From the IMG/VR virus record IMGVR_UViG_2695420814_000008: a stretch of DNA of 14,088 nt, one strand, 5' to 3'. The DNA comes from a virus (Duplodnaviria > Heunggongvirae > Uroviricota > Caudoviricetes). The number at the start of each line of letters is the position of its first letter. Within the stretch, counting starts at the first letter, position 1. Both the position numbers and the translations under genes were made by a program. Under the pieces are notes generated by a model that saw nothing but the letters and a program-made list of their open reading frames with translations, was not told the DNA's origin and ran no database searches. Of this stretch, positions 1-14,088 are shown piece after piece.

Positions 1-79
1 GCCTTCAGGGAAAAATATCATCAGATGGCTGCTTAAAAAAAGAACAAATGGTAGTGTCCGCTATTGCCAGTACACCTCA
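1..79 (+). mobile_element. Right end of an IS3-family (IS600-like) element, including the last 11 codons and stop of its orfB (1..36); the element presumably continues left of the window
   Basis: Positions 1-79 match 5868-5946 (3' end of the transposase ORF 5085..5903 plus terminal sequence ending ...CACCTCA); sequence diverges at 81. RC of the end is TGAGGTG..., the TG...CA terminus typical of the IS3 family. Confidence 0.8.
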
Positions 80-206
80 GGGTATAAGGGGTTATGGCCA
101 CCGGACTACCAAACGGCTGCCAGCCCTCTTTCAGTTTATGTGTCAGCTTTTCCGCAAGATCTGACGGCGGCGCCGCCCTGACAACATCATAGTGTTTAAA
201 TGCCAT
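80..206 (-). pseudogene. 5' part of a small phage-associated gene (MAFKHYDVVRAAPPSDLAEKLTHKLKEGWQPFGSPVAITPY...) truncated by the IS600-like end; resembles small DUF1737-type prophage proteins (from memory)
   Basis: ATG at 206 preceded by GGTGGAAAG (SD-like); reading frame runs straight into the IS end at 79/80 (track ORF 33..221), so the native C-terminus is lost. Confidence 0.3.
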
Positions 207-466
207 GGTTCTTTCCACCATCTGAAAAATAATTCTTTAAAATACCTGACATGTAATACAGAAAAAACACAAAACCATACCTTAAATAAAAACCTGATTA
301 TCAAGCAGATATGCATGGATAAACTACAAGACGAGATATAAACCACCCTGCATTTAAATAAACAATAAACAACATCAGAAAAATAATTCTGCTCTATGGT
401 TTACATTCAAAAATATCATTTATACTTTTCAGAACATCACCAGCAAGGCATAAACAAGGAAACTAA

Positions 467-802
467 ATGAAGTGGATTGTGATTGATACAGTTATCCAGC
501 CATCATGCGGAATATCTTTTTCAGTCATATGGAGTAAAATAAAATTAATAATCTGGTATCAATCGGATGCTTTCTTACCTCCTGAAAGTATATTTACACT
601 GACTCACACAGGCATCATGCTCAATAACAAAGTGCTACCTGTAACCATTTACAACGTAGTACCATTCAATAAAACATTCTGGAATTCAATCAAAAATAGC
701 CAGGAATGCCCTACAAATACAGATAACGTATTGAATGAATGCTTTAATAACCGTTGCACTCTGCAAATATGTCCTTATGGACTAAAACAACAAAGTCCAT
801 AA
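467..802 (+). CDS. Hypothetical 111-aa protein in AT-rich DNA, C-terminal third Cys-rich; no family recognised
   Basis: ORF track; AAGGAAA about 7 nt upstream of ATG; long open frame in a block visibly AT-rich where stops are frequent by chance; followed by a strong hairpin at 837-858. Confidence 0.35.
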
Positions 803-836
803 GGAGTTTACTCACATCTGACAAAATCAATATAAA

Positions 837-858
837 CAGCCCCTCCGGAGAGGGGCTG
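837..858 (-). terminator. Perfect 9-bp GC-rich stem-loop (CAGCCCCTC-CGGA-GAGGGGCTG); U-tract only on the minus-strand reading
   Basis: Inverted repeat read directly; on the minus strand it is followed by TTTATATTGATTTT, on the plus strand it lacks a T-run. Confidence 0.4.
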
Positions 859-1249
859 GAGAGTGGCGCTATGTGCCATTGCATGGTGCCGGGTGCCTCC
901 CGGTGAATTCAGTACCAGCACCTGAATCCGCGATTATCCCATATACCTACTCGCTGATTGCCCCTCCGCACAGGGGGATTCACCATGCCAGTTTCTTTTA
1001 ACAAACTCCCCGCAAACCAGACAACAGTCAACCGCCTGAATTGTGAAGTATTTAAAAATTTCTCCCGCTAACTGATACCCGGCTAACAGTCTGGCGTTTT
1101 CTTTTTCAGCAACGGGAAAGCAACAACCACCACACCCGCCACCAGCACACCGTCAGCCAGCACTGACATTATCCGGCTGCTGCAATGCCATTCACAAAAA
1201 CAGTAAGCAATCACTTTTTACCGTAACAGGTGATAATCCAGATATGTAT

Positions 1250-1603
1250 CTACCCCAGATGAGTAATCCGAAGTTCATCCATACCACAGGTCCTGGCTAT
1301 TCTGTTGTACTCCTGAACAAGAGCAAATAATTCTGAATTAGCAACCATGAACTCATCGCAAACCCTCTGTATAGCATCACTATTCAGAATAATAACGTCT
1401 CTTCCCGAAAGACGATCAGGAGTACAGAACAAAACTGTCAAACGGCTGAAGGCCTTTGCTCGTGCTGCATTGACTATATCAATACGCTGCCTAAGGATGA
1501 AACACCCCGACGCCTCATCAATATTCACTCTACCCACACCATATGAATGATAAATATTTAATGCTGAAAAAACCATTAGACCGTATAACAAACACTCAAT
1601 CAA
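1250..1603 (-). CDS. Hypothetical protein (117 aa from TTG at 1603; 108 aa from first ATG at 1576); not recognised
   Basis: ORF track; lies just downstream (minus strand) of the phage tRNA pair in the position where lambdoid phages carry moron genes; no convincing SD, and an overlapping plus-strand ORF (1347..1550) exists, so coding strand is uncertain. Confidence 0.3.
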   Translation of the reverse strand: MIECLLYGLMVFSALNIYHSYGVGRVNIDEASGCFILRQRIDIVNAARAKAFSRLTVLFCTPDRLSGRDVIILNSDAIQRVCDEFMVANSELFALVQEYNRIARTCGMDELRITHLG

Positions 1604-1713
1604 TACTTAACAGAACTTTTATTTTTGACAAACATAAAATATTTTCAACAATATCCTGAGCCAGGTATATTTCAGTATAAGGCTCTGCCGGAAGGAATCT
1701 GGAAGAATGAATA

Positions 1714-1790
1714 TGGCGCGCTGTACTGGATTCGAACCAGTGACCGATTGCTTAGAAGGCAATTGCTCTGTCCGGCTGAGCTAACAACGC
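1714..1790 (-). tRNA. tRNA-Arg, anticodon UCU (phage-type, argN-like)
   Basis: RC reads GCGTTGTTAGCTCAGCCGGACAGAGCAATTGCCTTCTAAGCAATCGGTCACTGGTTCGAATCCAGTACAGCGCGCCA: 7-bp acceptor stem (one G-U), GCTCAG D-arm, anticodon stem ATTGC/GCAAT with loop CTTCTAA, GGTTCGAATCC T-arm, encoded CCA. Confidence 0.85.
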
Positions 1791-1890
1791 TGAATACCGA
1801 TAATGGACCGCCATCGGGGACCCGCCCCCGCACCAACAACCCTGTTATCGTGTCGTCTGCTCTTCCTGATAAGCTAATGGCGGTTTGTGA

Positions 1891-1966
1891 TGGTGGCCCT
1901 TGCTGGATTTGAACCAGCGACCTGGCGATTATGAGTCGCTCGCTCTCACCACTGAGCTAAAGGGCC
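1891..1966 (-). tRNA. tRNA with CAU anticodon, most similar to tRNA-Ile2 (ileX/ileZ type, lysidine-modified) rather than tRNA-Met
   Basis: RC reads GGCCCTTTAGCTCAGTGGTGAGAGCGAGCGACTCATAATCGCCAGGTCGCTGGTTCAAATCCAGCAAGGGCCACCA: 7-bp acceptor stem, anticodon loop CTCATAA, T-arm GGTTCAAATCC, encoded CCA; overall close to remembered E. coli ileX. Confidence 0.8.
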
Positions 1967-2007
1967 GGGAGCAGAATAATAACGGTCCGTAATTAATTCC
2001 GCAATAA

Positions 2008-2034
2008 AAAACCCGCTCGGCGGCGGGTTGTAGA
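2008..2034 (-). terminator. Rho-independent terminator about 35 nt downstream of the Q-like gene (candidate tR'-type site or plain operon terminator)
   Basis: Plus strand AATAAAAAA-AACCCGC-TCGGCG-GCGGGTT; on the minus strand a 7-bp GC-rich stem is followed by UUUUUUAUU. Confidence 0.6.
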
Positions 2035-2068
2035 AACTCTTCTAACGTCAGGCATAAAACGCCCATAG

Positions 2069-2923
2069 TTATGACGAATTTACCACAGATTCCGGAAAAA
2101 TCAACCTAGTTACCTTTTTTAACTGCCGCTCAGCCCATGCTTCTTCAATATCAAACCGAGTCACCAGCGCATCATAGAATTTCTTAACTGTTTTTTCCCA
2201 TGACGCGCGTGTTATCTGGTTTGTCACCTCGCATATAGCATTAAATGCCTCCGTTGATGGTAGTCTTTCATAGCCACGACCACCACAACGCTGGCAGTCT
2301 CTGATAACAGGCATACCACGTTTTACCGACTCTTCACGATGAATGGCGACACCACGCCCACGGCAATCCTTACAGGCGGTGGAAACCTCACCCTTTCCGC
2401 CACACTCCGGACAGGCAACTTTTACCACCTCCCTGACTTTTTTCCATTCTTCCCAGTAAGACGGATACACACCTTTCGTACACTTTGCCCATACCGGCGG
2501 CTTACCATCCGGATACTGGACCTTGTTTGTAAAAACTACGCTTTCAATAAATTTTTCCCCATAGCAACAAGGGCACTGCTTTTTACTCGCTGCGCTGCGG
2601 GCATAATCCTCAAAAGCGTACGAAGCCATAATGCGCATCACTACCGGTTTTATTTCTGCCGGAAGTTTTCTCAACGCCGCCACACGATCGCACCGACTGA
2701 GTGCATAATCTGCCAGTAATTCTGTTGCCCGCGCCCTGTCATTCATACTGATGCCCATTTTCCCCAGGAACGCAGAAAACCCCATCTCAGCCCGATTCTG
2801 TGTCATGCCCTGCGCGGCCATCACATCAGTGATACTCAGCGCATCTTTTGACGTTGAGGCCGATGCATCGGTCAGGCAAGGGGATTTTGGGGAGTAGTAT
2901 TTCGGTAAATCTTCCAGTTTCAT
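2069..2923 (-). CDS. Lambdoid late-region regulator, putative Q-like antiterminator, carrying four DnaJ-type zinc-finger repeats (CPCCYGEKF, CPECGGKGE, CKDCRGRGV, CQRCGGRGY)
   Basis: 284-aa ORF; start ATG overlaps the rusA stop (ATGA); immediately downstream of rusA and upstream of a terminator and phage tRNAs, the canonical Q slot. Product assignment is by position plus motifs, not by recognised sequence identity. Confidence 0.55.
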   Translation of the reverse strand: MKLEDLPKYYSPKSPCLTDASASTSKDALSITDVMAAQGMTQNRAEMGFSAFLGKMGISMNDRARATELLADYALSRCDRVAALRKLPAEIKPVVMRIMASYAFEDYARSAASKKQCPCCYGEKFIESVVFTNKVQYPDGKPPVWAKCTKGVYPSYWEEWKKVREVVKVACPECGGKGEVSTACKDCRGRGVAIHREESVKRGMPVIRDCQRCGGRGYERLPSTEAFNAICEVTNQITRASWEKTVKKFYDALVTRFDIEEAWAERQLKKVTRLIFPESVVNSS

Positions 2924-3294
2924 TTTTTGACCTGCTCTTCATGCATTATGGGGTAAATCTTCACCCCCAGACGTCCACCAGATACTGGCTGACCACGAAC
3001 GATATTGATTTCATCAAACTGCTCATCGTCCATTAACACTCCCGCATGTGTCAGTGCATCCAGTGGTGCTTTCAGGATATTGTCCAGGTCACGACGGCGC
3101 TTATCCGGTGGCTCTGCAATAATCTTTATCGCCAGTCTTCCGGACAGGCTTAATTTCAGTCGCTGCTGACGGACAATAAGCGCCACATCCCGGCGATAAC
3201 GCTCACCGGCTTTTGATACAAAATATGTGTTGTCACGACGTCGCCAGTAAGTATTCACCGTCGGCGGATAAGGTAAAATAAACTCATGGCGCAT
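2920..3294 (-). CDS. rusA: RusA-family Holliday-junction resolvase (prophage crossover junction endodeoxyribonuclease)
   Basis: 124-aa ORF with ...PPDKRRRDLDNILKAPLDALTHAGVLMDDEQ..., matching the RusA catalytic-core motif (D-RRRDLDN) as remembered from E. coli RusA; typical nin-region location. Confidence 0.85.
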   Translation of the reverse strand: MRHEFILPYPPTVNTYWRRRDNTYFVSKAGERYRRDVALIVRQQRLKLSLSGRLAIKIIAEPPDKRRRDLDNILKAPLDALTHAGVLMDDEQFDEINIVRGQPVSGGRLGVKIYPIMHEEQVKK

Positions 3295-3551
3295 CAGCGC
3301 AGCACCTCCTGCACCAGTTTTTCAAACTTTCCGACTCTGGTTTCCAGCTCTGCCACACAGTCCACCAGCTCATCTACTGCTTTCTGTGCGCGATGCTTCG
3401 CCTGCATCAGTTCCCGAAGCGCGGGTACCATATCTTTACGGATAGCGTCTTTTGTTATGCCCGTTTTTTCGAGTTGTTCAGCATGACGCAGCATTTCCTG
3501 CGCGTGTTTACGCAATTGTTCAGGGGTAAAAGTCATTGTCTGGTTGTTCAA
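3294..3551 (-). CDS. Small hypothetical nin-region protein (85 aa from TTG at 3551; alternative ATG at 3536), predicted helical
   Basis: ORF track; stop overlaps rusA start by 1 nt (TGATG); GGAG 9 nt upstream of the TTG. Confidence 0.5.
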   Translation of the reverse strand: MNNQTMTFTPEQLRKHAQEMLRHAEQLEKTGITKDAIRKDMVPALRELMQAKHRAQKAVDELVDCVAELETRVGKFEKLVQEVLR

Positions 3552-3587
3552 AAGAAACGCTCCATCTTACTGCTGTCAGTTCGTTTA

Positions 3588-3671
3588 TTACTGTATCTGC
3601 GCGGATTGCCGGGCTTCATGGGAGTGGAAAGCACCCGTGCACTTTCCTGGTCCACAGGCAGAAAATGTCCG
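3588..3671 (-). pseudogene. 3' remnant (last 27 codons, ...RTFSACGPGKCTGAFHSHEARQSAQIQ*) of an upstream phage gene cut by the IS2 left end
   Basis: The open frame runs from the IS2 boundary at 3671/3672 to a stop at 3588; the track ORF 3588..3806 is this frame fused to IS2 sequence. Confidence 0.3.
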
Positions 3672-3826
3672 TAGACTGGCCCCCTGAATCTCCAGACAAC
3701 CAGTATCACTTAAATAAGTGATAGTCTTAATACTAGTTTTTAGACTAGTCATTGGAGTACAGATGATTGATGTCTTAGGGCCGGAGAAACGCAGACGGCG
3801 TACCACACAGGAAAAGATCGCAATTG
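3672..3826 (+). mobile_element. IS2 5' fragment: left terminal repeat (TAGACTGGCCCCCTGAATCTCCAGACAACC...) plus first 18 codons of orfA, then abruptly joined to an IS21-family end
   Basis: Matches remembered IS2 left end; 3773-3827 equal 5948-6002 of the longer IS2 copy; junction at 3826/3827 (±1, one shared base). Confidence 0.85.
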
Positions 3827-3885
3827 TGTCAACGCCACGATGTTTGACCGTTATTTGCCATTTTCATGCCCGCTAAATACTTTCG

Positions 3886-4890
<1,005 letters not shown>

Positions 4891-5946
4891 AGAAAAGGGC
4901 TCGGTACTCCTGGTTCCCGCACGGTGGCTGAACTGGAATCTGAAATTCTGCAACTGCGTAAGGCGTTAAATGAAGCTCGCCTTGAGCGAGATATATTAAA
5001 AAAAGCAACAGCGTATTTTGCACAGGAGTCGCTGAAAAATACGCGTTAATCGAACAATGGCGACAACAATTTCCCATTGAAGCGATGTGTCAGGTATTTG
5101 GTGTATCCAGGAGCGGTTATTACAACTGGGTACAGCATGAACCCTCAGACAGAAAACAAAGTGATGAGCGGCTAAAACTGGAGATTAAGGTGGCACATAT
5201 CCGCACTCGCGAAACATATGGAACCCGGCGGCTCCAGACGGAGCTGGCAGAGAATGGCATCATCGTTGGTCGTGACCGACTGGCACGTCTTCGTAAGGAG
5301 CTAAGGCTACGCTGTAAGCAGAAACGCAAGTTCAGAGCGACTACGAACTCGAACCACAATCTGCCAGTTGCGCCAAATCTGCTGAACCAGACGTTCGCTC
5401 CTACAGCACCAAATCAGGTCTGGGTGGCGGACCTGACGTATGTTGCCACACAGGAGGGATGGTTGTACCTCGCTGGCATCAAAGATGTTTATACGTGCGA
5501 AATTGTCGGCTACGCCATGGGAGAGCGCATGACAAAAGAGCTGACAGGTAAAGCCCTGTTTATGGCGCTCAGGAGCCAGCGCCCACCTGCCGGGCTAATC
5601 CACCACTCTGATCGAGGTTCACAGTACTGCGCATACGATTACCGGGTCATACAGGAGCAGTCTGGTCTGAAAACATCAATGTCGCGTAAAGGTAACTGTT
5701 ACGACAACGCTCCGATGGAAAGCTTCTGGGGAACGCTGAAAAATGAGAGCCTGAGCCACTATCGTTTTAATAACCGGGATGAAGCCATCTCAGTAATACG
5801 GGAATACATTGAGATTTTCTACAATCGTCAGCGTCGTCACTCTCGTCTGGGGAATATCTCCCCGGCAGCCTTCAGGGAAAAATATCATCAGATGGCTGCT
5901 TAAAAAAAGAACAAATGGTAGTGTCCGCTATTGCCAGTACACCTCA
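4891..5946 (+). mobile_element. IS3-family (IS600-like) element lacking roughly its first 200 bp: orfA 3' part (4891..5049), slippery A-run, orfB, right end
   Basis: orfA frame reads ...RKGLGTPGSRTVAELESEILQLRKALNEARLERDILKKATAYFAQESLKNTR*; orfB product has the DDE-integrase core; 3' end identical to 1..79. Confidence 0.8.
5085..5903 (+). CDS. IS3-family orfB DDE transposase domain (probably made as an OrfAB fusion by -1 frameshift at the A-run 4998-5005)
   Basis: 272-aa ORF with ...WVADLTYV..., HSDRGSQY, ...[14 protein letters not shown]... (D, D, E core); orfB frame is open back across the A7G slippery run and is -1 relative to orfA. Confidence 0.85.
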
Positions 5947-5947
5947 G

Positions 5948-6313
5948 ATGATTGATGTCTTAGGGCCGGAGAAACGCAGACGGCGTACCACACAGGAAAA
6001 GATCGCAATTGTTCAGCAGAGCTTTGAACCGGGGATGACGGTCTCCCTCGTTGCCCGGCAACATGGTGTAGCAGCCAGCCAGTTATTTCTCTGGCGTAAG
6101 CAATACCAGGAAGGAAGTCTTACTGCTGTCGCCGCCGGAGAACAGGTTGTTCCTGCCTCTGAACTTGCTGCCGCCATGAAGCAGATTAAAGAACTCCAGC
6201 GCCTGCTCGGCAAGAAAACGATGGAAAATGAACTCCTCAAAGAAGCCGTTGAATATGGACGGGCAAAAAAGTGGATAGCGCACGCGCCCTTATTGCCCGG
6301 GGATGGGGAGTAA
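5948..6313 (+). CDS. insC: IS2 OrfA (InsC), HTH transposase N-terminal protein
   Basis: [41 protein letters not shown]...; the track ORF starts at an upstream in-frame ATG (5915) that lies in IS600-like sequence; slippery A AAA AAG at 6265-6271. Confidence 0.9.
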
Positions 6314-7176
6314 GCTTAGTCAGCCGTTGTCTCCGGGTGTCGCGTGCGCAGTTGCACGTCATTCTCAGACGAACCGATGACTGGATGGATGGCCGCCGCA
6401 GTCGTCACACTGATGATACGGATGTGCTTCTCCGTATACACCATGTTATCGGAGAGCTGCCCACGTATGGTTATCGTCGGGTATGGGCGCTGCTTCGCAG
6501 ACAGGCAGAACTTGATGGTATGCCTGCGATCAATGCCAAACGTGTTTACCGGATCATGCGCCAGAATGCGCTGTTGCTTGAGCGAAAACCTGCTGTACCG
6601 CCATCGAAACGGGCACATACAGGCAGAGTGGCCGTGAAAGAAAGCAATCAGCGATGGTGCTCTGACGGGTTCGAGTTCTGCTGTGATAACGGAGAGAGAC
6701 TGCGTGTCACGTTCGCGCTGGACTGCTGTGATCGTGAGGCACTGCACTGGGCGGTGACTACCGGCGGCTTCAACAGTGAAACAGTACAGGACGTCATGCT
6801 GGGAGCGGTGGAACGCCGCTTCGGCAACGATCTTCCGTCGTCTCCAGTGGAGTGGCTGACGGATAATGGTTCATGCTACCGGGCTAATGAAACACGCCAG
6901 TTCGCCCGGATGTTGGGACTTGAACCGAAGAACACGGCGGTGCGGAGTCCGGAGAGTAACGGAATAGCAGAGAGCTTCGTGAAAACGATAAAGCGTGACT
7001 ACATCAGTATCATGCCCAAACCAGACGGGTTAACGGCAGCAAAGAACCTTGCAGAGGCGTTCGAGCATTATAACGAATGGCATCCGCATAGTGCGCTGGG
7101 TTATCGCTCGCCACGGGAATATCTGCGGCAGCGGGCTTGTAATGGGTTAAGTGATAACAGATGTCTGGAAATATAG
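6271..7176 (+). CDS. insD: IS2 OrfB (InsD), DDE transposase catalytic protein, 301 aa
   Basis: ORF track; -1 frame relative to insC; sequence matches remembered InsD. Confidence 0.9.
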
Positions 7177-7187
7177 GGGCAAATCCA

Positions 7188-8752
<1,565 letters not shown>

Positions 8753-8811
8753 CGAAAGTATTTAGCGGGCATGAAAATGGCAAATAACGGTCAAACATCG
8801 TGGCGTTGACA

Positions 8812-9218
8812 ACAGTACAGGACGTCATGCTGGGAGCGGTGGAACGCCGCTTCGGCAACGATCTTCCGTCGTCTCCAGTGGAGTGGCTGACGGATAATGG
8901 TTCATGCTACCGGGCTAATGAAACACGCCAGTTCGCCCGGATGTTGGGACTTGAACCGAAGAACACGGCGGTGCGGAGTCCGGAGAGTAACGGAATAGCA
9001 GAGAGCTTCGTGAAAACGATAAAGCGTGACTACATCAGTATCATGCCCAAACCAGACGGGTTAACGGCAGCAAAGAACCTTGCAGAGGCGTTCGAGCATT
9101 ATAACGAATGGCATCCGCATAGTGCGCTGGGTTATCGCTCGCCACGGGAATATCTGCGGCAGCGGGCTTGTAATGGGTTAAGTGATAACAGATGTCTGGA
9201 AATATAGGGGCAAATCCA
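8812..9218 (+). mobile_element. insD: IS2 3' fragment (last ~407 bp: InsD C-terminal 132 codons plus right terminal repeat), a second copy of 6781-7187
   Basis: Direct identity to 6781-7187 by inspection, including the terminal GGGGCAAATCCA; the track ORF 8800..9207 is this insD fragment with a spurious start. Confidence 0.85.
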
Positions 9219-9220
9219 CG

Positions 9221-9355
9221 GGGATACCAGTTCAACCGAAAACGCCAGAGGAGGGGATTACCCGCTGGCAGGGTAAATCTGTGGTTTTTGATGCCAGCTA
9301 TAACGTGTTTGACGATAAAGTATTACGAAAGAACTTTAATGAGTTCATGGAGTAA
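9221..9355 (+). pseudogene. Orphan 3' end of an unrecognised gene (...GIPVQPKTPEEGITRWQGKSVVFDASYNVFDDKVLRKNFNEFME*) cut off by the IS2 right end
   Basis: Frame is open from the IS2 boundary to a stop at 9353-9355; no start codon or RBS of its own. Confidence 0.3.
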
Positions 9356-9498
9356 TTCGTTAAAGTAATTTACAACGCTATCCTTTTGCAAAGGAAACTT
9401 TCAGAAAATAACCCCAGGGTAATCACCTGGGGAAGGAACACAGTGTTATTATTGGATAATAAATTATTACTTGTTTTAAAGTTACACTAATGCAATAT

Positions 9499-10584
9499 CT
9501 ACTGATACTGGATGCTTGAATGTTTCATCCCTGCTGCGGAAAAGGGCAATATCCAGGGCCAGATATATTCACCGTTCATATTTCTGCATTTCTGTACAAT
9601 TTCCTCAGAAAGTGTCTTGTCAATTCTTTTCCACAGGTGCTCCTGCTGTCTTAAAATACTTTCGCATATTTCGAAATCATCTTCCTGAATCAGCATTTCG
9701 GCGCATTTAATGATTTCTGATCGTTCATGCAGCACGGAGGAATGGTTATAGAGCCAGTTTACAAACAGCAATGCTTCCGGATATTGTCCCCATAATGGTG
9801 AGTATGTTGCATAGTAATCTTCTGCCGTATCCAGAGAGCCGGAGAAGTCATGCCACACAGCAAGTGGAAATGGATGCAGATTTCCGCACAGCATTTCTGC
9901 GATGTAAGTGTTTGTGGCAAAGCCATGGCGAAAAGCTGTGGCGGCCTTAACATGTTCCCCGTTCAGAAAATGCAGGAGACCGAGTTCATACCAGTAAGGT
10001 GAAAATTCATCAGCATGCTCTTTCAGTACACTGAAGGCTCGCTCATGATCGCCGGTGCGTAACAGCTCTGAACCCAACAACCAGCGAGCCCCCTGATTAT
10101 CTTCAGGATTGTATGCCAGTATTTTATCAGTGAGCATAACCGCATCCTGATGGCGCTGTAAGTGCACATTTGCGAGAATTGCTGCATAAAGCGCGCGCAG
10201 ATAAGGCCGGTTTTCGGGATGCATCCAGATTATTTCACCACAGAAACTTTCCGGGATGATACGATTACCTGCCGCCAGTCCTTTAAGAGAGGCGTTCAGT
10301 GCCTTACGCGGGGCATTCTGTTCCAGAAATGCATATGCCAGATGAGCGTGTATATCAATAAAGTCCGGCTCCCGTTGAGCAAGGCGTCGGAGTTTGTTGA
10401 TGTAACTCGTCTCGCTGATTTCATCAGCGTCGTATGCATCAAGCACTTCTTCAAACTCCCCCAGCAATGGGCCAAACCAGGTATCCGGAAATACGAAATA
10501 ACCCTTGTTATCGTGCACTTCAAAGCATAATCTATCGTTCATTTCTGAGCCTGTAAAACATGTGGTGATATAGTCTGAGAGCAT
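9499..10584 (-). CDS. Hypothetical island cargo protein, ~361 aa from first ATG (374 aa if the GTG at 10623 is used; another ATG at 10542); alpha-helical, possibly TPR-like; no catalytic motif recognised
   Basis: Long ORF in track (9499..10623); same orientation as and immediately downstream of int; flanked on both sides by AT-rich DNA. No start candidate has a good SD, so the start is uncertain. Confidence 0.6.
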   Translation of the reverse strand: MLSDYITTCFTGSEMNDRLCFEVHDNKGYFVFPDTWFGPLLGEFEEVLDAYDADEISETSYINKLRRLAQREPDFIDIHAHLAYAFLEQNAPRKALNASLKGLAAGNRIIPESFCGEIIWMHPENRPYLRALYAAILANVHLQRHQDAVMLTDKILAYNPEDNQGARWLLGSELLRTGDHERAFSVLKEHADEFSPYWYELGLLHFLNGEHVKAATAFRHGFATNTYIAEMLCGNLHPFPLAVWHDFSGSLDTAEDYYATYSPLWGQYPEALLFVNWLYNHSSVLHERSEIIKCAEMLIQEDDFEICESILRQQEHLWKRIDKTLSEEIVQKCRNMNGEYIWPWILPFSAAGMKHSSIQYQ

Positions 10585-10871
10585 AAAAGTTGAGATTCTG
10601 TGTATCAAGTCCTGTCTTGGCACCGAATGAATATTGCTTACGAAGCCCCTTCATGCTTTCCTTGAGAACAATAATTTTATCTTTATGTGAATCTCATTTT
10701 TTATAATGATGTCAGATGATTGAAATGCTAAATTATATCTGAATCAACTTTTCCTTTGCTAAAGGTATCGAAATAACTGCAAGGCTGTATTTTGTAATTG
10801 CCAATTTAAAAATGTCAATTTGTTTTTAATTATGTTTTTGTAATAAGTTTGAAGACGCAAAAAAAATAATA

Positions 10872-10908
10872 TAATAACAAAAATCCTCCAGCCTTGTAGG
10901 CCAGAGGA
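10872..10908 (-). terminator. Probable int terminator: imperfect 10-bp stem-loop followed by a U-run on the minus strand
   Basis: Plus strand TAATAACAAAAA-TCCTCCAGCC-TTGTA-GGCCAGAGGA; 8 of 10 stem pairs form; about 46 nt downstream of the int stop. Confidence 0.5.
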
Positions 10909-10953
10909 TAAAATACTTAATTGAGGAAAATATCAGGGAAAAGTATTTCTGAC

Positions 10954-12138
10954 TTAACTTTCCCGGCTGGAGAGTGAATCAATGTAATCAGCGTACCATT
11001 GCATCATTTCACGGCGGCCATCGAGATACAGGGCATGATTATAGGTACCCCTGATGGAATTTTTATCCACATGAGCTAACTGCATTTCAATCCAGGCGGA
11101 ATTAAAGCCTTGTTCATGCAGAATTGTACTCATGGTGTGTCTGAAACCGTGCCCTGTGAGTCTTCCCTTATATCCAAGTAATTCAATTACTTGGTTAATG
11201 CTTTCCTTACTAATTGGTTTGCGGGGATCATTTCTACCGATAAAGACTAGGGGATGATGTTTTGAGATTGGTTCAAGCTGCTTAAATAGCATAATGACCT
11301 GCTCAGAGAGCGGCACAATATGAGGTCGCTTCATCTTCATTACTTCTGCCGGGATCTCCCACAATTTTGTCTCAAAATCGATATCTTCCCAGCGTGCAAA
11401 ACGCAGTTCTTGTGTTCGTACGCCGGTTAACATAATGATCTGAGTAGCTGTCTTAGTGATTATACTTCCGGTATAACCCGCCAGATCGTTGAGGAAGTGG
11501 GGAAGTTCATTAGCAGTAAGAAAGGGAAAATGTACTTTTTTCGGTGTAGCTAAAGCACTGGCAAGATCGGGGGCTGGGTTATAGTCTGCCCGGCCAGTAA
11601 CAATTGCATAGCGGAACACCTCACCACAGCGCTGGCGGACCTTGCGCATTTTCTCCAGAGCTCCACGTTTTTCCATTTTACGCAGTGCTTCCAGTAACTC
11701 CATTGGTTTGATTTCGGCAATAGGGCGCTTGCCAATGTAGGGAAAAATGTCTTTTTCAAAGGTATCAATGATTTCATCACGATAGCGTAATGACCACCGA
11801 TCAGCTTTTGACTGGTGCCATTCGCGAGCAATAGCCTCGAACGTATTTTTCAGACTCATTTGCTGCGCGATTTTTTCTTCCTTTTTTGCCTCCCCTGGAT
11901 CGCCTCCAGCAGCGAGGAGTTTCCTGGCTTCACTGCGTTTCTCGCGAGCATCGGCTAGCGTTACATCGGGGTATACGCCAATAGAAAGCATCTTTTCTTT
12001 ACCAGCAAAGCGGTACTTCATGCGCCAGTATTTAGAACCATTAGTGTTAATCAGTAGATACATACCGCCGCCATCAGCAAGCTTATAGGGTTTGTCTTTG
12101 GGTTTTGCGGTTTTCACTTTGATATCGGTTAATGCCAT
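10954..12138 (-). CDS. int: P4-family tyrosine integrase (394 aa), apparently intact
   Basis: N-terminus MALTDIKVKTAKPKDKPYKL... typical of tRNA-associated P4-like integrases; catalytic-region motifs ...TGVRTQELRFARWEDID..., GHGFRHTMST (HxxR), ...RGTYNHALY (Tyr); strong SD GGAGG 5 nt upstream of ATG; sits beside the 3' end of selC. Confidence 0.9.
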   Translation of the reverse strand: MALTDIKVKTAKPKDKPYKLADGGGMYLLINTNGSKYWRMKYRFAGKEKMLSIGVYPDVTLADAREKRSEARKLLAAGGDPGEAKKEEKIAQQMSLKNTFEAIAREWHQSKADRWSLRYRDEIIDTFEKDIFPYIGKRPIAEIKPMELLEALRKMEKRGALEKMRKVRQRCGEVFRYAIVTGRADYNPAPDLASALATPKKVHFPFLTANELPHFLNDLAGYTGSIITKTATQIIMLTGVRTQELRFARWEDIDFETKLWEIPAEVMKMKRPHIVPLSEQVIMLFKQLEPISKHHPLVFIGRNDPRKPISKESINQVIELLGYKGRLTGHGFRHTMSTILHEQGFNSAWIEMQLAHVDKNSIRGTYNHALYLDGRREMMQWYADYIDSLSSRES

Positions 12139-12437
12139 GACATCCTCCGGCTTTTGATGAATTCATGTTCCTGAGGGGGATTTCTGCCAGTAACTAACCT
12201 GATACCCCCAATACACCCCTTGTATAACAAAGATATTGTTAAAAGCCGTTGTTATGTATCACATTTTTCCTATTATGGGGGTGCTTGTATTTCAATAGGA
12301 AATAACACCCCCTAAAGTACCCCCAAAAGAAACTTGATATGGGGTGAAGTAGGTTGACCTCAGGATACAAATAAATACTGATATACAAGGGATTAGAAGA
12401 GATTTATTGACATTGGGAGAGTTCAGAAGAGGTAAAC
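12139..12437. promoter_or_regulatory. int-selC spacer: attachment-site arm and int promoter region with repeated G5/C5-containing decamers in both orientations
   Basis: TATGGGGGTG-like motif at 12284-12293 and 12346-12355 (+), and as reverse complement at 12213-12220, 12222-12229, 12305-12313, 12319-12325; the pair at 12289-12313 forms GGGGTG...CACCCC around an AT-rich spacer. Confidence 0.4.
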
Positions 12438-12532
12438 TGGCGGAAGATCACAGGAGTCGAACCTGCCCGGGACCGCTGGCGGCCCCAACTGGATTTGAAG
12501 TCCAGCCGCCTCACCGGAGACGACGATCTTCC
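12438..12532 (-). tRNA. selC: tRNA-Sec (selenocysteine, anticodon UCA), 95 nt including encoded CCA
   Basis: RC reads GGAAGATCGTCGTCTCCGGTGAGGCGGCTGGACTTCAAATCCAGTTGGGGCCGCCAGCGGTCCCGGGCAGGTTCGACTCCTGTGATCTTCCGCCA, the E. coli selC sequence as remembered, with the long extra arm and 8-bp acceptor stem typical of tRNA-Sec. Confidence 0.95.
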
Positions 12533-12562
12533 GCGCCTCGATTGCTACATGGAGGCGGGGCG

Positions 12563-12568
12563 CATTAT
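12563..12568 (-). promoter_or_regulatory. Candidate -10 hexamer (TATAAT on the minus strand) for selC
   Basis: Perfect TATAAT about 30 nt upstream of the tRNA 5' end; no good -35 identified. Confidence 0.3.
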
Positions 12569-12824
12569 AGCTACTTCCTTGAGTTTCTACATCCCCCAGA
12601 TCAGTTTTTTCCGCCTAATACACGCAGCGTATTATCACGAAAGCATTATAACTCATATAAAACCCATATTTTACAATGATATATGAGCGGAATTAACGCT
12701 ACCACGATCACATAAAACAAGAATCATAAATTAATAACCAGATATCGGAATATTCGCTCTCACAGGGATGGTTTACAAAATGCGTTATCGGTCTCAGCAC
12801 CCCTATAGCATCAAGGAAAAGCAG

Positions 12825-14026
12825 ATGAAGAGTGAAGTGTTGTCCGTTAAAGAGAAAATTGGTTATGGCATGGGAGACGCCGCCAGCCACATTATTTTCG
12901 ATAACGTAATGTTATATATGATGTTCTTTTATACCGATATTTTTGGCATTCCTGCCGGATTTGTCGGAACCATGTTTTTGGTCGCTCGTGCACTGGATGC
13001 GATTTCCGATCCTTGCATGGGGTTGTTGGCCGATCGAACGCGCTCTCGCTGGGGTAAATTTCGTCCGTGGGTACTGTTTGGCGCACTGCCATTCGGGATC
13101 GTCTGTGTACTGGCCTATAGCACGCCAGATCTCAGTATGAACGGCAAAATGATCTATGCAGCAATTACTTACACCCTACTTACCTTACTTTATACCGTCG
13201 TCAATATCCCTTACTGCGCATTGGGTGGTGTAATCACCAATGACCCGACTCAGCGTATCTCGCTGCAATCCTGGCGTTTTGTGCTGGCGACCGCGGGAGG
13301 CATGCTTTCTACTGTTCTGATGATGCCACTGGTTAATTTAATTGGCGGTGATAATAAACCACTCGGTTTCCAGGGCGGTATCGCGGTCCTTTCCGTGGTG
13401 GCATTCATGATGCTGGCATTTTGTTTCTTCACCACTAAAGAACGCGTTGAAGCACCACCTACAACAACGTCTATGCGGGAAGATTTACGTGATATCTGGC
13501 AAAACGACCAGTGGCGGATTGTCGGTTTACTAACCATTTTCAATATCCTGGCGGTGTGCGTACGCGGTGGGGCGATGATGTATTACGTCACATGGATTTT
13601 GGGCACGCCGGAAGTGTTTGTCGCTTTTCTCACCACTTATTGCGTGGGTAACCTGATTGGTTCCGCACTGGCAAAACCTCTGACCGACTGGAAATGTAAA
13701 GTCACTATCTTCTGGTGGACGAACGCCCTGCTGGCAGTGATTAGCCTCGCGATGTTCTTTGTTCCCATGCAGGCCAGCATCACTATGTTTGTCTTCATCT
13801 TCGTGATTGGTGTGTTGCATCAACTGGTGACACCTATCCAGTGGGTAATGATGTCCGATACCGTCGACTACGGCGAGTGGTGCAATGGTAAACGCCTGAC
13901 CGGGATCAGTTTTGCTGGCACGCTGTTTGTGCTCAAACTGGGGTTGGCCTTCGGCGGCGCTCTTATCGGCTGGATGCTGGCTTATGGCGGATATGATGCG
14001 GCAGAAAAAGCGCAGAACAGCGCCAC
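12825..14026 (+). pseudogene. yicJ: yicJ-like GPH-family sugar:cation symporter, 3' end interrupted by IS1 (about 400 native codons, then 6 IS1-derived codons and a stop at 14046-14048)
   Basis: Start MKSEVLSVKEKIGYGMGDAASHIIFDNV... with AAGGA 8 nt upstream; multi-pass hydrophobic protein with the GPH N-terminal signature (GYGMGD...); divergent from selC as in E. coli K-12; the frame runs into the IS1 terminal repeat. Confidence 0.8.
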
Positions 14027-14088
14027 GGTGATGCTGCCAACTTACTGATTTAGTGTATGATGGTGTTTTTGAGGTGCTCCAGTGGCTT
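14027..14088 (+). mobile_element. IS1 left end (terminal inverted repeat and start of the element), continuing beyond the window
   Basis: GGTGATGCTGCCAACTTACTGATTTAGTGTATGATGGTGTTTTTGAGGTGCTCCAGTGGCTT matches the remembered IS1 IRL. Confidence 0.85.

Follow-up and report, generated by a model that had tools for sequence, protein, structure and literature searches.

An intact P4-family integrase gene at selC in a Shigella sonnei scaffold, very probably on the stub of an eroded SHI-2-type island

Islands at selC that carry a P4-type integrase

A P4-type integrase gene beside selC is already a known configuration, found in SHI-2, Tia-PAI, LPA (GIselC17584/1), PAI I536 and the LEE, and because islands of this kind are textbook cases, the locus described here holds little new biology. 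SHI-2 (PAI iuc/iut) is selC-associated in Shigella flexneri (Moss 1999 and Vokes 1999, as cited in passages of PMC7545054 and PMC1550401). There, a P4-type integrase gene (int) lies about 300 bp downstream of selC, shiA follows, and many IS are present. In ETEC H10407, the Tia-PAI island is 45.3 kb long; a second copy of a 24-nt selC repeat, TTCGACTCCTGTGATCTTCCGCCA, ends the island and is followed by K-12 downstream sequence with setC-yicL-nlpA. A 24-bp selC repeat has also been described together with a 16-bp repeat (PMC6174562), in agreement with the 24-nt repeat of H10407, and repeats have been noted for PAI tia and PAI I536 (PMC7545054). In LPA/GIselC17584/1 of LEE-negative STEC, shiA falls within the first 2.9 kb after selC, and a phosphoethanolamine-transferase gene comes next (PMC6174562).

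We compared these systems with a window of 14,088 nt, by which we mean the whole stretch of DNA analysed. The likeness to SHI-2 lies in the order of selC, int and a shiA-like gene and is seen through E. coli copies with an identical int, which carry iucABCD-iutA. In our contig, by contrast, selC has no linked aerobactin genes and no linked shiB-G, and all that is left before an IS2 is int, the shiA-like gene and a gene fragment. Tia-PAI has the same selC-int-TPR-phosphoethanolamine transferase module, with an Int 96.5% identical to ours and the same GGGGGT repeats in the spacer between selC and int. However, H10407 retains the whole 45-kb island, both 24-nt selC repeats and an intact transferase gene, whereas the S. 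sonnei copy is truncated. With LPA/GIselC17584/1, the locus shares the first ~2.9 kb (int and the probable shiA) and the transferase gene that follows; the 16/24-nt repeats and the spacer repeat TTTGGGGGTACTTTAGGGGGT described in PMC6174562 are also present in that system, but those islands are complete and repeat-bounded and carry other cargo. Relatives carrying espI were among the matches. The LEE-associated selC integrase of O157:H7 occupies the same site in the same orientation, its gene having 89.5% nucleotide identity to ours. It differs in its cargo, the LEE type III secretion island, and in its spacer, which in O157:H7 493/89 is without 105 bp that include three of the four GGGGGT motifs conserved in other alleles.

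From the evidence set out below, we conclude that the locus is very probably the selC-proximal (attL-type) junction of an island of the SHI-2/pic-sat-iuc type that has been eroded in the S. sonnei lineage.

Three scaffold pieces in one window

The window is identical to draft scaffold CXFC01000151.1 (GCA_001253355.1), of the Shigella sonnei lineage, save at two positions:

4891, no strand: scaffold gap, N in CXFC01000151.1 and A in the window
7188, no strand: scaffold gap, N in CXFC01000151.1 and A in the window

These gaps fall on the junctions IS21/IS600 and IS2/IS21, both of which were missing from all of the closed-genome loci that we fetched, while all other junctions of the window were found in those loci. 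Because the two junctions are N gaps, the ORFs that run across them (7161..7955 and 4706..5077) returned no record in the collection look-up. The 132-aa ORF at the IS600/IS2 junction, looked up in the same way, led to CXFC01000151.1. The window is thus made of three scaffold pieces, and only 7189..14088 is contiguous with selC. The first piece (1..4890) is 99.96% identical to, and collinear with, a lambdoid prophage remnant of closed S. sonnei genomes, and in it an IS21-like element adjoins the remnant. The second (4892..7187) contains an IS600-IS2 junction that also occurs in CP000038.1 and other genomes, at the yaiO/mhp locus. The third (7189..14088) consists of an IS21-like fragment, the right end of IS2, the island stub, selC, a truncated yicJ and an IS1 end. 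A 1068-bp perfect inverted repeat in the window (3827..4894 and 7744..8811) comprises two right-hand parts of the IS21-like element and exists because two scaffold pieces each run into a copy of the same IS. Synteny across 4891 and 7188 is invalid, because the N gaps were rendered as A, and the practical outcome is that gene order read across these positions is not usable.

These results bear on the claim, made in a preliminary description of the window, that everything to the left of selC is probably island cargo. That claim was not borne out, given the N gaps, the position of the prophage elsewhere in closed genomes and the later arrival of the IS. In closed S. sonnei genomes, 2.2-2.7 Mb separate the prophage remnant (77..3670) from selC; in HE616528.1, the prophage locus is at 1.31-1.33 Mb and selC at 4.06-4.08 Mb. 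On the basis of the gaps and this distant position, the lambdoid remnant was rejected as island cargo. The remnant and the central IS block are neighbours of the island in the scaffold only.

The selC junction and the DNA joined to it

The piece that is contiguous with selC contains the following features:

7189..9217, plus strand: IS21-like element (partial, to 8811) inside IS2, then the right 412 bp of IS2 (8807..9217)
9218..9355, plus strand: phosphoethanolamine-transferase gene, 3' fragment cut by IS2 (RefSeq annotation in relatives)
9499..10542, minus strand: gene for a TPR protein of 347 aa, probably a homologue of shiA of SHI-2 (weak Pfam TPR matches; position)
10883..10909, minus strand: terminator-like hairpin downstream of int (consensus scan; a pattern match only)
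10954..12138, minus strand: intact P4-family tyrosine integrase gene, 394 aa (Pfam; P4 Int BLASTP; catalytic residues)
12139..12437, minus strand: island arm of 299 bp between selC and int, with four GGGGGT motifs
12438..12461, minus strand: att core at the proximal junction, formed by the final 24 nt of selC
12438..12532, minus strand: selC, tRNA-Sec gene, UCA (ARAGORN; Rfam RF01852; K-12 alignment)
12825..14027, plus strand: yicJ, backbone, truncated (sequence; IS1 left end at 14028..14088)

ARAGORN called a tRNA-SeC with anticodon TCA at 12438..12532 on the minus strand, the Rfam tRNA-Sec model (RF01852) scored 83.8 bits there against a gathering score of 47, and alignment showed the sequence to be identical to K-12 selC. 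The preliminary description had the 3' end of selC (12438) facing an intact P4-type int 299 bp away, and the ARAGORN, Rfam, ORF and Pfam results agree with it. It had also placed an island boundary at selC with yicJ as backbone on the other side, and had proposed a comparison with an island-free relative. In that comparison, with K-12 MG1655, yicJ, the intergenic region and all of selC were fully identical, and the match ended at 12438, which in the alignment with the empty site is the final base of selC. Both placements are therefore upheld, although yicJ is cut by an IS1 end at 14027/14028. Because K-12 identity breaks at 12438 and H10407 carries a 24-nt repeat, 12438..12461 is taken as the att core of the proximal junction. 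The integrase gene adjoins the 3' end of selC in the same orientation across a 299-bp gap, the break in identity with the island-free relative is sharp, and the GC content is 0.35-0.47 over 9200..12200 versus ~0.50 in the yicJ region. Together, these sequence comparisons support the selC/int junction as a genuine boundary between island and backbone. Fixed to the base, the boundary and the att core are usable for typing selC occupancy.

The identical truncated YicJ product is present in closed S. sonnei chromosomes, including HE616528.1, CP019689.1 and CP044151.1, and, being indexed in 2253 collection blocks, it is a lineage marker. The next gene after yicJ, yicI, is also split in the closed S. 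sonnei loci (locus coordinates 11258..14734), by an IS4-family element. At the K-12 empty site, an annotated pseudogene, yicT, lies 109 bp downstream of selC (K-12 locus coordinates 3426..3557).

The claim that the integrase gene is intact, with catalytic motifs and a good Shine-Dalgarno sequence, also stood. The ORF starts with ATG, 5 nt after a GGAGGA Shine-Dalgarno sequence. Pfam recognised Arm-DNA-bind_3 (PF13356, 2.8e-30), Phage_int_M (PF22022, 4.6e-36) and Phage_integrase (PF00589, 5.5e-28), and the catalytic residues are complete (R241, K268/K270, H330, R333, H356 and Y366). In BLASTP, residues 1-387 aligned with residues 5-406 of P4 Int (NP_042035) at 45% identity (E 2e-115), and the protein is full length relative both to P4 Int and to identical RefSeq proteins. 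The catalytic domain, the arm-binding and central SAM-like domains and the full-length similarity to P4 Int place it in the P4 family (DUF4102-type); the closest phage integrases, of the Sf6/IntS type, are about 50% identical. P4 Int has the same three domains and catalytic residues, but P4 integrates at leuX and has its own excisionase, ORF88, whereas no excisionase is linked to int here.

E. coli 15A and cM8a have integrases of the same amino-acid sequence (100% identity), and the exact protein is found on at least 1000 contigs. Int plus spacer was present at >=80% coverage in 1517 of the 5426 complete E. coli genomes, BL21 among them, so that the module is missing from most. The perfect conservation relative to the E. 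coli copies could reflect retained function, but a recent common ancestor alone could also account for it.

The four GGGGGT motifs of the spacer (12204, minus; 12277, plus; 12307, minus; 12319, minus) make up four of the five in the whole window. Alleles with as little as 87% nucleotide identity keep the motif cores and vary in the adjacent bases, and in the H10407 island a GGGGGT pair likewise lies 75 bp in from the distal end. By analogy with the annotated arm repeats of P4 attP, which lie on both sides of its core, the motifs are plausible candidates for arm-type Int binding sites.

Native island DNA joined to selC amounts to only ~3.2 kb (9218..12437) and comprises int, the 347-aa TPR gene and the last 138 nt of the phosphoethanolamine-transferase gene. 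The preliminary description had counted a 374-aa ORF as island cargo. A TPR gene does lie in the native stub, but it is called as 347 aa; the mechanical ORF reaches 374 aa by running to an upstream GTG at 10623. Records with exactly this TPR sequence name it as a Shigella protein. An S. sonnei shiA homologue has been described in a short region beside IS21 (PMC5447701), and from its position and the statements of this paper and PMC6174562, the TPR gene is probably shiA. One review, however, describes ShiA as a putative quinone reductase, which is an ill fit to a TPR protein.

From the transferase fragment to the end of yicJ (9218..14027, a 4.8-kb selC region), the window shares 99.9% identity with E. 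coli O111:H21 15A and cM8a. In these two strains the same selC module is followed by pic, sat and iucABCD-iutA, and in E. coli OkiPb01676, as in H10407, an intact transferase gene (500 aa in OkiPb01676) is followed by tia/leoABC. The aerobactin operon iucABCD-iutA, whose linkage to selC characterises SHI-2, was absent from the 14-kb contig in searches of its ORFs and with Pfam.

The IS21-like/IS2 part (7189..9217) is collinear with closed S. sonnei genomes and gives Pfam IstB/rve matches. In closed chromosomes of the 53G type, an IS2 carrying an IS21-like insertion sits within the transferase fragment, flanked by a target duplication. Comparison of the 53G-type locus with the uninterrupted 15A sequence gives this duplication as CGGGG, 5 bp, at 9218..9222. 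The IS21-like element and IS2 are later insertions into the island and not its cargo. Beyond IS2::IS21, the 53G-type locus is collinear with the 15A island at 98.4% identity and ends in a 5' fragment of pic. This fragment (locus 21..623, minus strand) holds the first 197 pic codons, 100% identical to 15A Pic, and is cut by IS600; S. sonnei has been described as without pic (PMC5447701).

Erosion of the island and the standing of its integrase

We propose that an ancestral island with a P4-family int entered the last 24 nt of selC by site-specific recombination. As with other P4-family integrases, Int would have recombined selC with an attP core of the same sequence as the selC 3' end, which would have regenerated an intact tRNA gene and put int ~300 bp downstream, where it is now observed. 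IS2, itself struck by the IS21-like element, would later have entered an already truncated transferase gene 3.2 kb from selC, and on the backbone side yicJ was truncated by IS1. IS-mediated inversions would have relocated the rest of the island, at least in some strains. Still linked to selC are int, the shiA-like TPR gene and the gene fragment.

The preliminary description had held that the island may still be excisable if the other att site survives, and had suggested a search for a direct repeat of the selC 3' end. Three probes (a 26-mer, the published 16-mer and another 16-mer from the extreme 3' end) were run against the 14-kb contig with as many as 3 mismatches tolerated, and none revealed a distal repeat; they matched selC itself and, by chance, one 3-mismatch site inside IS2. 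The S. sonnei loci that we fetched did not contain such a repeat either, and no excisionase (Xis/AlpA-like) ORF was found in the stub. Left flanks beyond the IS21-like element vary among closed S. sonnei genomes. In some of their loci (locus coordinates 1..5930), the immediate left neighbour of the IS21-like element at the stub is gor-dinQ-arsRBC backbone, which an IS-mediated inversion with one endpoint inside the island could explain. In S. sonnei Ss046, an inversion has unlinked SHI-2 from selC (PMC1550401). Because the contig has no distal 24-nt repeat and no excisionase gene, and because of the Ss046 inversion, the island is unlikely to be excised as a unit.

With no partner att site or excisionase nearby, int would be stranded and without function in cis. 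Judged from its sequence context, it is most likely a stranded recombinase at a decayed island junction, and the S. sonnei selC locus would then be a clear example of IS-driven erosion leaving such an integrase behind.

A stranded Int might nevertheless be active in trans, at other att sites, on a new selC element arriving beside the stub or on other P4-type islands. The intact int ORF, 100% identical to widespread E. coli copies, would allow this, as would an intact selC that offers a full core site and the conserved candidate arm sites. Against it, a simple promoter scan found no sigma-70-like promoter on the int strand of the selC-int spacer, and int is dispensable: in 53G-type S. sonnei loci (locus coordinates 7353..9314) it is split by IS1 into pieces of 341 aa and 43 aa, so an intact int is not required in S. 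sonnei. We regard activity in trans as unlikely. If the GGGGGT motifs were uncharacterised selC-Int arm sites and the S. sonnei Int were active, elements that target selC could still be captured or exchanged at the stub, eroded as the island is, a proposal that we consider unlikely.

Very unlikely, in our judgement, is an intact and potentially excisable selC island whose cargo would include the TPR ORF, the IS cluster and the prophage remnant. The integrase is indeed intact with its catalytic residues complete, the identity break does fall at the selC 3' end, and the related H10407 island does retain both 24-nt repeats. However, scaffold gaps interrupt the window at 4891 and 7188, and the prophage remnant lies elsewhere in all of the closed S. 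sonnei genomes examined, which largely refutes the part of this reading that concerns cargo. The contig lacks a distal repeat and an excisionase-like ORF, and the strain-dependent left flanks, gor-arsRBC backbone among them, together with the inversion reported for Ss046 (PMC1550401), also speak against an excisable unit and fit the eroded junction that we favour.

We give almost no credence to the proposal that int belongs to a phage or satellite prophage at selC, represented by the lambdoid remnant on the left, and not to a pathogenicity island: the best phage relatives of Int, of the Sf6/IntS and P4 types, are ~50% identical and a Q antiterminator, RusA and tRNA genes do lie within the same window, but the remnant, rejected as the owner of int for its gaps and distant locus, is connected to it through N gaps and IS copies only, closed genomes place it in another prophage locus beside an LRR/NEL effector gene, and the E. 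coli copies of int lead into shiA, phosphoethanolamine-transferase and tia/pic/sat/iuc cargo and not into phage genes.

The prophage piece (1..4890) has a gene content of its own, comprising a DUF1737 gene, a PmrD/IraM-like gene, an STnc100 sRNA, tRNA-Arg, tRNA-Met, Q and RusA. In closed S. sonnei genomes the remnant lies near an LRR_TTSS/NEL (ipaH-type) gene. Within it, tRNA-Arg(TCT) and tRNA-Met(CAT) stand directly downstream of the Q antiterminator gene (1714..1966, minus strand; 2069..2923, minus strand). Q followed by tRNA-Arg/tRNA-Met is the layout upstream of stx in Stx phages; no toxin genes follow the Q/tRNA block in this remnant. The STnc100 sRNA (828..1017, minus strand) is a full-length match to RF02076 at 132 bits. 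A 111-aa ORF of the PmrD family occupies 467..802 on the plus strand, and for an E. coli match over the same region the annotation lists 'anti-adapter protein IraM'.
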